64,000 nucleotides of DNA from assembly GCF_022846255.1 (NCBI RefSeq), contig NZ_AP025682.1. One strand, given 5' to 3'. Each line of letters begins with the position of its first letter. The stretch's first letter is position 1. The notes below the pieces were generated by a model. The model made no database searches. It was given only the letters and a program-made list of their open reading frames with translations, and was not told the DNA's origin. Below, in pieces: positions 1 through 50,197 of this stretch. The stretch comes from Escherichia coli. GTDB lineage: Bacteria; Pseudomonadota; Gammaproteobacteria; Enterobacterales; Enterobacteriaceae. A program made the translations under genes and the position numbers.

Positions 1-45
1 CATTGGCGGCACGCGTTGCTAATTCACGATGGTGATTTTATTTCC

Positions 46-61
46 ACGCAAACGGTTTCGT
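46..61. promoter_or_regulatory. PurR operator (pur box) in the purL promoter
   Basis: 16-bp imperfect palindrome ACGCAAACGGTTTCGT about 75 bp upstream of the purL ATG, followed by TATAAT at 79-84; matches the PurR box consensus ACGCAAAC-GTTTGCGT. Confidence 0.55.
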
Positions 62-137
62 CAGCGCATCAGATTCTTTATAATGACGCCCGTTTCCCCC
101 CCTTGGGTACACCGAAAGCTTAGAAGACGAGAGACTT

Positions 138-3100
138 ATGATGGAAATTCTGCGTGGTTCGCCTGCATTGTCGGCATTCCGAATCAACAAACTGCTGGCA
201 CGTTTTCAGGCTGCCAGGCTCCTGGTTCACACTATTTACGCCGAGTATGTCCATTTTGCTGACCTCAATGCGCCGTTAAACGATGATGAGCACGCACAAC
301 TTGAACGCCTGCTGAAATATGGCCCGGCACTCGCCAGCCACGCCCCGCAAGGCAAACTCCTGCTGGTGACCCCGCGTCCTGGCACCATCTCTCCCTGGTC
401 TTCGAAAGCGACCGATATTGCCCATAACTGCGGGCTGCAACAGGTAAACCGCCTTGAGCGCGGCGTTGCTTACTATATAGAAGCCGGTACGCTGACCAAT
501 GAACAATGGCAGCAGGTTACCGCTGAACTGCACGACCGCATGATGGAAACGGTCTTTTTTGCTTTAGATGATGCAGAGCAGCTGTTTGCACACCATCAAC
601 CGACTCCGGTCACCAGCGTTGATTTGCTGGGGCAGGGCCGTCAGGCGCTAATCGACGCTAACCTGCGTCTTGGCCTGGCACTGGCGGAAGATGAAATTGA
701 CTATTTGCAGGATGCTTTCACAAAGCTTGGTCGTAACCCGAACGACATCGAACTGTATATGTTTGCCCAGGCGAACTCCGAGCACTGCCGCCACAAAATT
801 TTTAACGCCGACTGGGTTATCGATGGTGAACAGCAGCCGAAATCGCTATTTAAGATGATCAAAAACACCTTCGAAACCACGCCGGATCACGTTCTCTCTG
901 CTTATAAAGATAACGCCGCCGTAATGGAAGGTTCTGAAGTGGGCCGCTACTTTGCTGACCACGAAACGGGCCGCTACGATTTCCATCAGGAACCGGCGCA
1001 TATTCTGATGAAAGTCGAAACTCACAACCACCCGACGGCGATTTCTCCGTGGCCGGGCGCGGCGACCGGTTCCGGCGGTGAAATCCGCGATGAAGGTGCC
1101 ACCGGACGTGGCGCAAAGCCGAAAGCCGGTCTGGTTGGTTTCTCCGTATCCAACCTGCGAATTCCTGGCTTCGAACAGCCGTGGGAAGAAGATTTCGGTA
1201 AACCTGAGCGCATTGTTACCGCGCTGGACATCATGACCGAAGGCCCGCTGGGCGGTGCGGCGTTTAACAACGAATTTGGTCGTCCGGCACTGAACGGCTA
1301 CTTCCGTACTTATGAAGAAAAAGTGAACAGCCACAATGGCGAAGAGCTGCGCGGTTATCACAAACCGATCATGCTGGCGGGTGGGATCGGCAACATTCGC
1401 GCCGATCACGTACAAAAAGGCGAGATCAACGTTGGTGCGAAGCTGGTCGTTCTCGGCGGCCCGGCAATGAACATCGGTCTTGGCGGCGGCGCGGCGTCTT
1501 CCATGGCATCTGGTCAGTCTGATGCCGACCTCGACTTTGCTTCCGTACAGCGCGACAACCCGGAGATGGAGCGTCGCTGCCAGGAAGTGATCGACCGTTG
1601 CTGGCAGCTTGGTGATGCCAACCCAATCCTGTTTATCCACGACGTTGGCGCAGGCGGTCTTTCTAACGCCATGCCGGAACTGGTGAGCGACGGCGGGCGC
1701 GGCGGTAAATTTGAACTGCGCGATATCCTGAGCGACGAACCGGGCATGAGCCCGCTGGAAATCTGGTGTAACGAATCCCAGGAACGCTACGTGCTGGCGG
1801 TTGCTGCCGATCAGTTACCGCTGTTTGACGAACTGTGTAAGCGTGAGCGCGCACCCTACGCGGTGATTGGTGAAGCGACCGAAGAACTGCATCTTTCTTT
1901 GCACGATCGTCATTTTGATAATCAGCCGATTGATCTACCGCTGGACGTACTGCTTGGCAAAACGCCGAAGATGACCCGCGATGTACAAACGCTGAAAGCG
2001 AAAGGCGACGCGCTGGCCCGTGAAGGGATCACCATCGCTGACGCGGTGAAACGCGTGCTGCATCTGCCGACCGTGGCGGAGAAAACTTTCCTGGTGACCA
2101 TCGGTGACCGCAGCGTAACCGGCATGGTGGCGCGCGATCAGATGGTGGGGCCGTGGCAGGTGCCGGTCGCTAACTGCGCGGTCACTACCGCCAGCCTCGA
2201 CAGCTACTATGGCGAAGCGATGGCAATTGGCGAACGTGCGCCAGTTGCGCTGCTGGATTTCGCCGCTTCTGCCCGTCTGGCAGTCGGTGAAGCGCTAACC
2301 AACATCGCCGCAACACAAATTGGCGATATCAAACGCATTAAACTTTCCGCCAACTGGATGGCGGCGGCAGGCCACCCTGGTGAAGATGCTGGCCTGTATG
2401 AAGCCGTTAAAGCTGTGGGTGAAGAACTTTGTCCGGCGCTGGGCCTGACGATACCGGTGGGTAAAGACTCTATGTCGATGAAAACCCGCTGGCAGGAAGG
2501 TAACGAAGAGCGCGAAATGACGTCGCCGTTGTCGCTGGTGATTTCCGCATTTGCCCGCGTGGAAGATGTACGTCACACCATTACGCCGCAGCTTTCTACC
2601 GAAGATAACGCACTGTTGCTGATTGATTTGGGCAAAGGCAATAACGCGCTGGGCGCAACGGCACTGGCGCAGGTTTATCGTCAGCTTGGCGACAAACCGG
2701 CAGATGTACGCGATGTTGCCCAACTGAAAGGTTTCTATGACGCGATTCAGGCACTGGTTGCACAGCGTAAGCTGCTCGCGTACCACGACCGCTCTGACGG
2801 TGGCCTGCTGGTGACGCTGGCGGAAATGGCGTTTGCTGGTCATTGTGGCATTGACGCAGATATCGCCACTCTGGGTGACGATCGTCTGGCTGCATTGTTT
2901 AGCGAAGAACTGGGTGCGGTGATTCAGGTGCGAGCCGCTGACCGTGAAGCCGTTGAAGCGGTACTGGCACAGCATGGGCTTGCTGATTGCGTCCATTATG
3001 TTGGGCAGGCGGTTTCCGGTGACCGTTTTGTGATTACCGCCAACGGGCAGACTGTATTTAGCGAAAGCCGCACCACGTTGCGTGTCTGGTGGGCAGAAAC

Positions 3101-4025
3101 TACCTGGCAGATGCAGCGCCTGCGTGACAACCCGGAGTGTGCCGATCAGGAACATCAGGCGAAATCAAACGACGCCGATCCGGGCCTTAATGTGAAACTG
3201 TCGTTCGATATCAACGAAGATGTGGCAGCACCGTTTATTGCCACTGGCGCGCGTCCGAAAGTTGCTGTGCTGCGTGAGCAGGGCGTGAACTCCCATGTTG
3301 AAATGGCGGCAGCTTTCCACCGTGCAGGCTTCGATGCTATCGACGTGCATATGAGCGATCTGCTGGCTGGACGCACGGGCCTGGAGGGTTTCCACGCCCT
3401 GGTCGCGTGCGGTGGTTTTTCCTACGGTGATGTGCTGGGCGCTGGTGAAGGTTGGGCGAAGTCTATCCTGTTCAATGACCGTGTACGCGATGAGTTTGCA
3501 ACCTTCTTCCATCGTCCGCAAACGCTGGCGCTGGGGGTATGTAACGGTTGCCAGATGATGTCTAATCTGCGTGAACTGATCCCAGGTAGCGAGTTGTGGC
3601 CACGTTTTGTGCGTAACACCTCCGATCGCTTTGAAGCGCGTTTCAGTCTGGTAGAAGTAACCCAAAGCCCGTCGCTGCTGTTGCAGGGGATGGTGGGCTC
3701 GCAGATGCCGATTGCTGTCTCTCACGGTGAAGGGCGCGTTGAAGTGCGCGATGCGGCGCATCTGGCGGCACTGGAAAGCAAAGGGCTGGTGGCACTGCGC
3801 TATGTCGATAACTTCGGCAAAGTCACTGAAACCTACCCGGCTAACCCGAACGGTTCACCGAACGGTATTACGGCGGTCACGACTGAAAGTGGTCGAGTCA
3901 CCATTATGATGCCGCACCCGGAACGAGTTTTCCGTACTGTCAGCAACTCCTGGCATCCGGAAAACTGGGGCGAGGATGGCCCATGGATGCGCATTTTCCG
4001 CAATGCACGTAAGCAGTTGGGGTAA
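138..4025 (+). CDS. purL: phosphoribosylformylglycinamidine synthase (large single-chain FGAM synthase)
   Basis: 1295-aa ORF with N-terminal [20 protein letters not shown] and a C-terminal glutamine amidotransferase domain (GVCNGCQMM); full-length collinear match to enterobacterial PurL from memory. Confidence 0.97.
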
Positions 4026-6906: not shown

Positions 6907-8230
6907 ACCTGCGCATTTATTACTGGTCGATGACGATCCGGGATTGCTGAAACTGCTTGGCCTGCGCCTGACCAGCGAAGGCTACAGTGTGGTCACGGCG
7001 GAAAGTGGTGCTGAAGGATTGCGGGTACTGAATCGCGAAAAAGTAGATTTAGTCATCAGCGACCTGCGGATGGATGAAATGGACGGTATGCAGCTGTTTG
7101 CTGAAATCCAGAAAGTGCAGCCGGGAATGCCAGTAATTATTCTTACCGCGCATGGTTCTATTCCTGATGCCGTTGCTGCAACACAGCAGGGCGTGTTCAG
7201 TTTTCTCACCAAGCCTGTCGATAAAGATGCGCTATATCAGGCAATTGACGATGCGCTGGAACAATCCGCGCCAGCCACCGACGAACGTTGGCGCGAGGCG
7301 ATTGTCACCCGCAGCCCGCTGATGCTGCGCTTGCTGGAACAGGCGCGGCTGGTGGCACAATCAGACGTTAGCGTTTTGATTAACGGCCAGAGCGGCACCG
7401 GGAAAGAGATTTTCGCCCAGGCTATCCACAACGCCAGCCCGCGCAACAGCAAGCCATTTATTGCTATTAACTGTGGCGCATTACCCGAGCAATTGCTGGA
7501 GTCGGAGCTGTTTGGTCATGCACGTGGCGCGTTTACTGGCGCTGTCAGCAATCGCGAAGGTTTATTCCAGGCGGCGGAAGGCGGTACGCTATTTCTTGAT
7601 GAGATTGGCGATATGCCTGCACCGTTGCAGGTCAAACTGCTGCGCGTGTTGCAGGAGCGTAAAGTGCGCCCGCTGGGCAGTAACCGCGATATTGATATCG
7701 ACGTGCGGATTATTTCTGCGACCCACCGCGACCTGCCAAAAGCGATGGCGCGTGGGGAATTCCGTGAAGATCTTTATTACCGCCTCAATGTTGTCAGCCT
7801 GAAAATTCCGGCACTGGCGGAGCGCACAGAAGACATTCCGCTACTGGCAAATCACCTGTTGCGCCAGGCGGCAGAGCGACATAAACCGTTTGTCCGCGCG
7901 TTCTCCACCGATGCAATGAAACGCCTGATGACTGCGAGCTGGCCGGGCAACGTGCGCCAGTTGGTCAACGTGATTGAACAGTGCGTGGCGCTGACATCAT
8001 CTCCGGTAATTAGTGATGCGCTGGTGGAGCAGGCGCTGGAGGGCGAAAACACGGCGCTGCCAACCTTTGTTGAGGCGCGTAATCAGTTTGAACTCAACTA
8101 TTTGCGTAAGCTGCTGCAAATCACCAAAGGCAACGTCACCCACGCGGCGAGAATGGCGGGGCGCAACCGGACAGAATTTTATAAACTGCTTTCCCGACAC
8201 GAACTGGATGCAAACGATTTCAAGGAATGA
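6896..8230 (+). CDS. glrR: sigma54-dependent response regulator GlrR/QseF
   Basis: Receiver domain (LLVDDDPGLL), AAA+ sigma54-activation domain with Walker A GQSGTGKE and the GAFTGA motif, C-terminal HTH; ATG at 6896 overlaps the qseG stop by 11 nt. Confidence 0.92.
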   Translation: MSHKPAHLLLVDDDPGLLKLLGLRLTSEGYSVVTAESGAEGLRVLNREKVDLVISDLRMDEMDGMQLFAEIQKVQPGMPVIILTAHGSIPDAVAATQQGVFSFLTKPVDKDALYQAIDDALEQSAPATDERWREAIVTRSPLMLRLLEQARLVAQSDVSVLINGQSGTGKEIFAQAIHNASPRNSKPFIAINCGALPEQLLESELFGHARGAFTGAVSNREGLFQAAEGGTLFLDEIGDMPAPLQVKLLRVLQERKVRPLGSNRDIDIDVRIISATHRDLPKAMARGEFREDLYYRLNVVSLKIPALAERTEDIPLLANHLLRQAAERHKPFVRAFSTDAMKRLMTASWPGNVRQLVNVIEQCVALTSSPVISDALVEQALEGENTALPTFVEARNQFELNYLRKLLQITKGNVTHAARMAGRNRTEFYKLLSRHELDANDFKE

Positions 8231-9915: not shown

Positions 9916-10193
9916 ATAAAAAATAGCCCTGCAATGTAAATGGTTCTTTGGTGTTTTTCAGAAAGAATGTGATGAAGTGAAAAATTTGCATCACAAACCT
10001 GAAAAGAAATCCGTTTCCGGTTGCAAGCTCTTTATTCTCCAAAGCCTTGCGCAGCCTGAAGGTAATCGTTTGCGTAAATTCCTTTGTCAAGACCTGTTAT
10101 CGCACAATGATTCGGTTATACTGTTCGCCGTTGTCCAACAGGACCGCCTATAAAGGCCAAAAATTTTATTGTTAGCTGAGTCAGGAGATGCGG

Positions 10194-47884: not shown

Positions 47885-50197
47885 ATGCCTCGCCTGTTAA
47901 CCAAACGCGGCTGCTGGATAATGCTGGCAGCCGCGCCTTTTATCATCATTCTGGCAGCATGGGCAGCAGATAAACTCTGGCCTCTGCCATTGCAAGAAGT
48001 GAATCCTGCACGCGTGGTGGTGGCGCAGGATGGTACGCCACTCTGGCGTTTCGCCGATGCTGACGGCATCTGGCGTTATCCGGTAACAATCGAAGATGTT
48101 TCTCCACGTTACCTTGAAGCGCTGATCAATTATGAAGATCGCTGGTTCTGGAAGCATCCGGGGGTGAATCCGTTCTCGGTGGCGCGTGCAGCCTGGCAAG
48201 ATCTCACGTCGGGTCGGGTCATTTCCGGCGGCAGCACGCTCACCATGCAGGTGGCGCGCCTGCTTGATCCTCACCCCAAAACGTTTGGCGGCAAAATTCG
48301 CCAGCTCTGGCGCGCGTTGCAACTGGAATGGCATCTGTCTAAACGTGAAATTCTGACCTTGTATCTTAACCGTGCCCCGTTTGGCGGTACGTTGCAGGGG
48401 ATTGGTGCGGCAAGTTGGGCTTACCTCGGGAAATCGCCTGCGAATTTAAGCTATTCCGAGGCGGCAATGCTGGCGGTGTTGCCGCAAGCGCCCAGCCGTC
48501 TTCGCCCGGATCGTTGGCCGGAGCGTGCCGAAGCCGCGCGTAATAAAGTGCTCGAACGGATGGCCGTGCAAGGTGTGTGGTCCCATGAGCGGGTAAAAGA
48601 GTCAAGGGAAGAACCCATCTGGCTGGCACCCCGACAAATGCCGCAACTGGCACCGCTGTTTTCGCGCATGATGCTCGGTAAAAGCAAAAGCGACAAAATC
48701 GTTACTACGCTGGATGCCGGTCTTCAACGACGTCTGGAAGAACTGGCGCAAAACTGGAAAGGACGATTACCACCGCGCAGCTCACTGGCGATGATCGTGG
48801 TTGATCATACCGATATGCGTGTTCGCGGCTGGGTGGGTTCGGTTGATCTCAACGATGATTCACGCTTTGGTCATGTTGATATGGTCAATGCGATCCGATC
48901 GCCAGGATCGGTGCTCAAACCGTTTGTTTACGGTCTGGCGCTGGATGAAGGCTTGATCCACCCGGCATCGCTGTTGCAAGACGTCCCCCGGCGTACCGGT
49001 GATTACCGACCTGGCAACTTTGACAGCGGTTTTCATGGCCCGATCAGCATGAGCGAGGCGCTGGTGCGCTCGCTGAATTTACCAGCTGTGCAGGTGCTGG
49101 AAGCCTATGGACCGAAACGGTTTGCGGCAAAATTACGCAATGTTGGATTGCCGTTGTATCTGCCCAACGGTGCTGCGCCGAATCTTTCGCTCATTCTCGG
49201 CGGCGCTGGTGCAAAACTGGAAGATATGGCGGCGGCCTATACCGCGTTTGCTCGCCACGGCAAGGCAGGTAAATTGCGCTTACAGCCTGACGATCCGCTG
49301 CTTGAACGGCCTTTAATGTCGTCGGGGGCTGCGTGGATCATTCGCCGGATTATGGCTGATGAAGCGCAACCCTTGCCGGATGGTGCCTTGCCGCGCGTCG
49401 CCCCACTGGCATGGAAAACGGGCACCAGCTATGGCTATCGTGATGCCTGGGCGATTGGGGTTAACGCTCGCTATGTCATTGGGATCTGGACTGGCAGACC
49501 GGACGGCACGCCCGTTGTTGGTCAGTTTGGCTTTGCCAGTGCCGTACCGCTGTTGAATCAGGTTAATAATATCTTACTGTCGCGCAGTGTGAATTTGCCG
49601 GAAGACCCACGTCCTGACTCTGTAAGTCGTGGCGTTATCTGCTGGCCGGGCGGACAGTCTTTGCCGGAAGGTGACGGTAACTGTCGCCGCCGCCTGGCAA
49701 CCTGGCTGCTGGACGGGAGCCAGCCGCCAACTCTATTACTGCCGGAGCAGGAAGGCATTAATGGCATTCGTTTCCCCATCTGGCTGGATGAAAACGGCAA
49801 ACGTGTTGCCGCTGATTGCCCTCAGGCGCGACAAGAAATGATAAATGTCTGGCCGCTATCGCTGGAACCCTGGCTGCCCGCATCAGAACGTCGCGCTGTG
49901 CGCTTGCCACCGGCCTCGACAATTTGCCCGCCATACGGTCACGATGCACAACTCCCGCTGCAGCTAACAGGTGTGCGCGATGGCGCGATTATTAAACGTT
50001 TACCGGGCGCAGCGGAAGCGACTTTGCCGTTGCAATCAAGTGGAGGGGCAGGTGAACGCTGGTGGTTTCTGAATGGCGAACCGTTAACTGAACGTGGGCG
50101 CAACGTGACCCTGCATTTGACGGATAAAGGCGATTATCAATTGCTGGTGATGGATGACGTGGGGCAAATAGCGACAGTGAAATTTGTCATGCAATAG
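47885..50197 (+). CDS. pbpC: penicillin-binding protein 1C (bifunctional glycosyltransferase/transpeptidase)
   Basis: 770 aa; GT51 motifs and transpeptidase KTG(T/S) motif (WKTGTSYGYRDAWA); ATG directly abuts the yfhM stop (TAAATG). Confidence 0.93.
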   Translation: MPRLLTKRGCWIMLAAAPFIIILAAWAADKLWPLPLQEVNPARVVVAQDGTPLWRFADADGIWRYPVTIEDVSPRYLEALINYEDRWFWKHPGVNPFSVARAAWQDLTSGRVISGGSTLTMQVARLLDPHPKTFGGKIRQLWRALQLEWHLSKREILTLYLNRAPFGGTLQGIGAASWAYLGKSPANLSYSEAAMLAVLPQAPSRLRPDRWPERAEAARNKVLERMAVQGVWSHERVKESREEPIWLAPRQMPQLAPLFSRMMLGKSKSDKIVTTLDAGLQRRLEELAQNWKGRLPPRSSLAMIVVDHTDMRVRGWVGSVDLNDDSRFGHVDMVNAIRSPGSVLKPFVYGLALDEGLIHPASLLQDVPRRTGDYRPGNFDSGFHGPISMSEALVRSLNLPAVQVLEAYGPKRFAAKLRNVGLPLYLPNGAAPNLSLILGGAGAKLEDMAAAYTAFARHGKAGKLRLQPDDPLLERPLMSSGAAWIIRRIMADEAQPLPDGALPRVAPLAWKTGTSYGYRDAWAIGVNARYVIGIWTGRPDGTPVVGQFGFASAVPLLNQVNNILLSRSVNLPEDPRPDSVSRGVICWPGGQSLPEGDGNCRRRLATWLLDGSQPPTLLLPEQEGINGIRFPIWLDENGKRVAADCPQARQEMINVWPLSLEPWLPASERRAVRLPPASTICPPYGHDAQLPLQLTGVRDGAIIKRLPGAAEATLPLQSSGGAGERWWFLNGEPLTERGRNVTLHLTDKGDYQLLVMDDVGQIATVKFVMQ

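Follow-up and report, generated by a model that had tools for sequence, protein, structure and literature searches.

Positions 46 to 137 of the window, our term for the whole 64,000-nucleotide stretch of Escherichia coli DNA that was analysed, are the regulatory region of purL. The gene itself begins at position 138, an assignment made from its open reading frame and from the annotation of matching E. coli genomes. On the other side lies mltF, transcribed divergently from purL. The mltF-purL intergenic region measures 257 bp and the window begins inside it, with the mltF start codon 120 bp before window position 1.

The strain that supplied the window is not K-12, but its purL regulatory region is the same as that of K-12. 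Positions 20-120 are 100% identical to K-12 MG1655, and a by-eye comparison found a match over positions 1-150. Because of this identity, published K-12 data apply directly to the window. Positions 1-400 are also 100% identical to APEC strain IMT5155 and to several other complete E. coli chromosomes, and the region was found in 5425 of 5426 complete E. coli genomes, chromosomal in every case. The purL promoter with its PurR operator is already known as a feature, recorded in RegulonDB and as a ChIP-chip site. It is a real textbook regulatory site that can be recognised from raw sequence alone, and the comparative picture below is our only addition to it. The elements of the region are as follows, with promoter coordinates given relative to the start site.

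37 to 44, plus strand: A/T-rich block TTTATTTC, -55 to -48, directly upstream of the operator
46 to 61, no strand assigned: PurR operator (pur box) ACGCAAACGGTTTCGT, -46 to -31, with its central CpG at 53-54
56 to 61, plus strand: -35 position, TTTCGT, -36 to -31, set off by a 17-nt spacer and lying inside the operator's promoter-proximal half-site
73 to 78, plus strand: conserved spacer element ATTCTT (consensus ATTCTY), not a TGn extended -10
79 to 84, plus strand: -10 hexamer TATAAT, -13 to -8, matching the consensus at 6 of 6 positions
85 to 91, plus strand: GC-rich discriminator GACGCCC, -7 to -1
92, plus strand: transcription start site, a G, +1, 46 nt before the ATG and 8 nt after T84
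92 to 137, plus strand: purL leader of 46 nt, +1 to +46, unstructured
138 to 4025, plus strand: purL coding sequence, 1295 aa, phosphoribosylformylglycinamidine synthase

Matrix scoring identifies the palindrome at 46-61 as a PurR operator. Operators of the LacI/GalR family are short palindromes centred on a CG, and a dimer controlled by a small-molecule ligand binds them. PurR needs its corepressor, hypoxanthine or guanine, in order to bind, whereas LacI is released by its inducer. The original operator binding data for purL are reportedly those of He et al. in 1990. A preliminary description of this DNA had placed a canonical pur box at 46-61, and ACGCAAACGGTTTCGT is present at exactly those positions. 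The word canonical holds for the intact CpG and for 14 of the 16 positions of the ideal palindrome ACGCAAACGTTTGCGT, but not for G55 and T58, which both deviate and both fall in the promoter-proximal half-site. The box is self-complementary at 12 of 16 positions, and no other exact copy occurs within the 64-kb window.

The score of the box is high by several measures. Our PurR matrix excludes purL and draws on the other 27 ChIP-chip motifs that Cho et al. 2011 (PMC3159470) give in their Table 1. The matrix scan that had been proposed as a check bore out the assignment: in this leave-one-out setting the box scored 21.79 of a possible 24.72 bits, ranking 9th among 28 in vivo PurR sites that range from 12.1 to 24.7 bits. 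The exact P value is 1.75e-8 per position, so that 64 kb should hold 0.002 matches by chance and a 4.64 Mb genome 0.16. Across 30 shuffled versions of the window, top matrix scores had a mean of 14.5 bits and stayed at or below 20.3. Extending the search upstream, as had also been suggested, showed the 120 bp before the window, up to mltF, to be free of a second PurR site. The next best match in the full 257-bp intergenic region scores 3.5 bits, and we rejected it as a further operator.

Published work on the identical K-12 sequence documents corepressor-dependent PurR occupancy in vivo. Cho et al. 2011 (PMC3159470) report a purL ChIP-chip peak at 2,693,490-2,693,714 in K-12, with a log2 enrichment of 1.88 in the presence of adenine and no peak in its absence, and a motif at 2,693,642-2,693,657. 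Their purL motif, ACGAAACCGTTTGCGT, is the reverse complement of the box, and with the purL ATG (position 138) set at 2,693,565 its coordinates agree exactly with the window. Table 2 of PMC2585596 lists RegulonDB PurR sites, and the 16-mer of the box is its first entry. Genes of the IMP pathway are repressed by PurR (Cho et al. 2011, PMC3159470), and purL is one of the purR-regulated genes that Meng et al. 1990 name in their title. The purL site is one among about a dozen operators by which PurR ties purine availability to de novo synthesis.

The purL promoter pairs a perfect -10 with a poor -35. TATAAT stands at 79-84, where the preliminary description had it, with exactly 17 nt between box and hexamer. 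The claimed overlap of the box with the -35 region stands as a matter of position, the operator at -46 to -31 covering it, but the hexamer itself fits only in part. TTTCGT agrees with the consensus TTGACA at 2 of 6 positions, and 2 of 6 is the best agreement found at spacers of 16, 17 and 18 nt. A consensus promoter scan missed the purL promoter because of this poor -35. Given its mapped start site, the promoter is active with a weak -35. The A/T-rich block at 37-44 may function as a distal UP-element subsite, or else may belong to a divergent -10.

Transcription of purL starts at G92 in two independent published data sets, which fits the proposed -10. One 454 read in Mendoza-Vargas et al. 2009 (PMC2760140, Table S1) puts the purL start 46 nt ahead of the start codon; the authors pair this start with the -10 box 'attcTTTATAATgacg' and found no -35. 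SMRT-Cappable-seq (PMC6131387, Supplementary Data 2) gives purL starts at NC_000913.3 positions 2,695,589 and 2,695,578; with the purL start codon at 2,695,543, these correspond to window G92 and T103. T103 comes immediately after a C7 tract, and the DNA upstream of it lacks a -10-like hexamer. Because it follows that tract and because 5' poly-C was trimmed from the reads in SMRT-Cappable-seq (PMC6131387), T103 is probably a trimming artefact rather than the product of a second promoter. An IHF site, TAACTCATTGATTTTAAT, is tabulated for purL at -107 to -90 (Mendoza-Vargas et al. 2009, PMC2760140, supplementary file 6). Inspection by eye found this string absent from the purL-mltF intergenic sequence, and the entry may be a mis-assignment in that table.

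Among the Enterobacterales sampled, four features are near-frozen amid drifting DNA: the slightly off-consensus operator, its 17-nt distance to the -10, the discriminator and bases +1 to +9 of the transcript. We collected purL loci with a degenerate DNA pattern for the PurL N-terminus only, taking one genome per species, a search that carried no promoter information. It gave at least 120 loci, and all the identifiable ones among those listed are Enterobacterales. In the 117 listed loci with at least 200 bases extracted, we sought the best PurR-matrix hit within 260 bp upstream. Only three box variants were found among them: ACGCAAACGGTTTCGT in 84, GCGCAAACGGTTTCGT in 28 and ACGCAAACGGTTACGT in 5. 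In each of the 118 listed sequences exactly 17 nt separate the box from the -10, which reads TATAAT in 115 and TATACT in 3. The distance from the end of the box to the second ATG codon is variable, at 69-124 nt in the listed loci.

Conservation at each column was computed from the 118 distinct sequences among the loci listed, in an alignment anchored on the box. Anchoring makes the invariance of the box columns partly a matter of construction, so the unconstrained matrix search is the fairer test of the operator. For the 118 listed sequences the columns, numbered as in the window, read as follows.

Columns 1-36: 0.0-0.5 bits
Columns 37-44, mostly A/T: 0.5-1.4 bits
Columns 46-61, box: 14 of 16 invariant, partly fixed by the anchoring
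Columns 63-72, spacer: 0.15-0.8 bits
Columns 73-78, ATTCTY: 1.1-2.0 bits, with T74 invariant
Columns 79-84, -10: five of six invariant
Columns 87-91, discriminator: C or G in at least 94%
Columns 92-100, GTTTYCCCC: 1.0-2.0 bits

Across the 118 listed Enterobacterales, ATTCTY and GTTTYCCCC are almost as conserved as the -10 itself. Position 92, the mapped start, is a G in 104 of the 118 listed species. At closer range, we examined four divergent relatives, of which three are E. coli strains and one is E. albertii, and neither the box nor the -10 differs in them; within E. coli and E. albertii, positions 1-150 show indel variation only in the length of the C tract at 96-102. The frozen pattern points to constraints on the purL promoter beyond PurR binding alone.

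We conclude with high confidence that the region is a sigma-70 promoter with a perfect -10, a poor -35 and a start at G92, on which a single PurR operator acts to lower purL transcription. Once hypoxanthine or guanine has loaded the PurR dimer, the dimer binds 46-61. Bound PurR would most likely keep RNA polymerase, by way of sigma region 4, off the promoter, and could possibly also keep the alpha C-terminal domains off the adjacent A/T-rich DNA. Plentiful purines would in this way lower purL transcription. The geometry is the one that the preliminary description had expected for occlusion: the operator at -46 to -31 covers the -35 position and lies within the polymerase-contacted DNA upstream of +1. 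Steric exclusion is the usual reading of LacI-family operators that lie over the -35, and we infer from the geometry that PurR excludes RNA polymerase in this manner at purL. With the -35 at 2 of 6, the contact that PurR would block is a weak one.

A poor -35 can also be read in another way. The promoter may need its conserved upstream A/T-rich contacts at 37-44 together with its perfect -10, and PurR at 46-61 could then repress a later step, isomerisation or promoter escape, or act mainly by blocking alpha-CTD contacts at 37-44. The operator nevertheless falls inside the normal polymerase footprint, and Cho et al. 2011 (PMC3159470), who find PurR sites mostly in the -35 to -10 region, assign sites in that region to the regulation of initiation; we consider action at a later step or on the alpha-CTD unlikely. 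The position of the box between two genes raises the further question of whether it also, or instead, controls the divergent mltF. On the minus strand, CTGACG and TAAAAT, separated by 18 nt at 64..35, bracket the box, which would place the operator in the spacer of a promoter facing the nearby mltF start codon. This minus-strand match reaches only 9 of 12, however, and conservation of its hexamers is poor, with variation at columns 62-64 and an A at column 35 in 48 of the 118 listed sequences. Nearer to mltF, beyond the window, there is a second sigma-70-like candidate (L001 2489..2461). The ChIP-chip peak is assigned to purL only (Cho et al. 2011, PMC3159470), and no yfhD entry was found in the tables of Mendoza-Vargas et al. 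2009 (PMC2760140). Searching the start-site tables of Mendoza-Vargas 2009 and SMRT-Cappable-seq turned up no entry for mltF. PurR control of mltF is unsupported, and we regard it as very improbable.

Short palindromes do arise by chance, and the 16-mer could in principle be a functionless match of this kind. The 0.002 matches expected per window, the in vivo occupancy of the identical sequence (Cho et al. 2011, PMC3159470) and the near-invariance of the box in 117 listed species beside freely varying flanks leave that account a vanishingly small probability.

The purL operator is built like those of other pur genes. It shows no difference from its K-12 counterpart, sharing the identical 16-mer, flanks (1-150), gene and orientation. 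The purEK, purMN, cvpA-purF, purHD, purT and purC promoters likewise combine a sigma-70 promoter with a 16-bp pur box, which has a central CpG and adjoins or overlies the promoter. The position of the operator relative to the -10 is as follows.

purL: operator 17 nt before the -10
K-12 purEK: operator 16 nt before the likely -10 (TATTCT)
K-12 purMN and cvpA-purF: operators 7 nt before the -10
K-12 purT: operator 1 nt before the -10
K-12 purHD: operator directly abutting the -10
K-12 purC: operator downstream of the likely -10

The purB and purR sites share the repressor and the motif family with purL but lie downstream of the transcription start, where they act as roadblocks to elongation (Cho et al. 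2011, PMC3159470). The purL box is upstream of +1, so it is not a site of the roadblock kind.

The purL promoter could carry a further layer of control. ATTCTY and GTTTYCCCC are specific to purL when set against the other K-12 pur promoters examined. GC-rich discriminators, by comparison, are shared with four of these promoters: purL has GACGCCC, and at the K-12 loci L126, L128, L129 and L131 the -10 is followed by TGCGCCG at purMN, GCGCCCC at cvpA-purF, GCGGGCG at purHD and GCGCGCG at purT. A GC-rich discriminator is a hallmark of promoters inhibited by ppGpp/DksA. At the level of sequence, the shared discriminators suggest that stringent-type control may extend across the regulon. A full-text literature search on ppGpp control of purL returned nothing direct, and a link of purL to stringent control is something we only infer. 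We give a low chance to the presence of a second, undescribed control element besides PurR, consisting of ATTCTY, the discriminator and a GUUUYCCCC transcript start with a variable C tract. If present, these elements could mark direct sensing of ppGpp/DksA or of the initiating nucleotide. Alternatively, they could form a leader element that tunes promoter escape or translation, with C-tract length serving as a strain-level dial on expression.

The 46-nt leader of E. coli purL is unstructured. It consists of a conserved 5' block GTTTCCCCC (92-100), a C tract (96-102) and a ribosome-binding block GAAGACGAGAGA (123-134), with the C7 tract occupying +5 to +11. We considered a structured leader RNA and rejected it, the RNA from 92 to 160 folding worse than 199 of 200 shuffles. 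The leader fold has an energy of -7.5 kcal/mol against a shuffle mean of -14 kcal/mol (z = +2.3), making it less structured than the shuffles. Rfam returned no match at E <=1 over window positions 1-400, and RNAalifold found no consensus structure in 119 listed leaders or in 28 E. coli-like short leaders.

Leader sequences vary within E. coli and between genera. GTTTCCCC is a purL-specific element alongside ATTCTT. Among complete E. coli genomes, the C tract is C6 in O121:H19 FWSEC0006, C7 in the window and K-12, and C11 in strain 48; these length differences could be true slippage variation or homopolymer assembly error. In many Enterobacterales leaders, the 5' block and the ribosome-binding block are separated by an additional GC-rich insert able to form a hairpin. 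Carriers include Enterobacter, Serratia, Pantoea, Erwinia and Yersinia (loci L005, L007, L011, L013 and many others), and the insert differs in sequence by genus, for example AAGCGCC...GGCGCTT in L007 and AGCACTGT...TCAGTGTCT in L013. The purL leaders of E. coli, Citrobacter and Kluyvera are without it.

The window contains other box-like sequences. We rejected one of them, at 49112-49127, as a chance match: it has 3 mismatches and no central CpG and falls outside the top matrix hits. Two more are published PurR sites, placed here on a gene map that assumes the window to be collinear with strain IMT5155. At 8208-8223 on the minus strand, TTGAAATCGTTTGCAT scores 13.5 bits, about 70-80 bp upstream of glnB and overlapping the end of glrR. 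At 10060-10075, AGGTAATCGTTTGCGT scores 21.9 bits and lies about 120-130 bp upstream of glyA.
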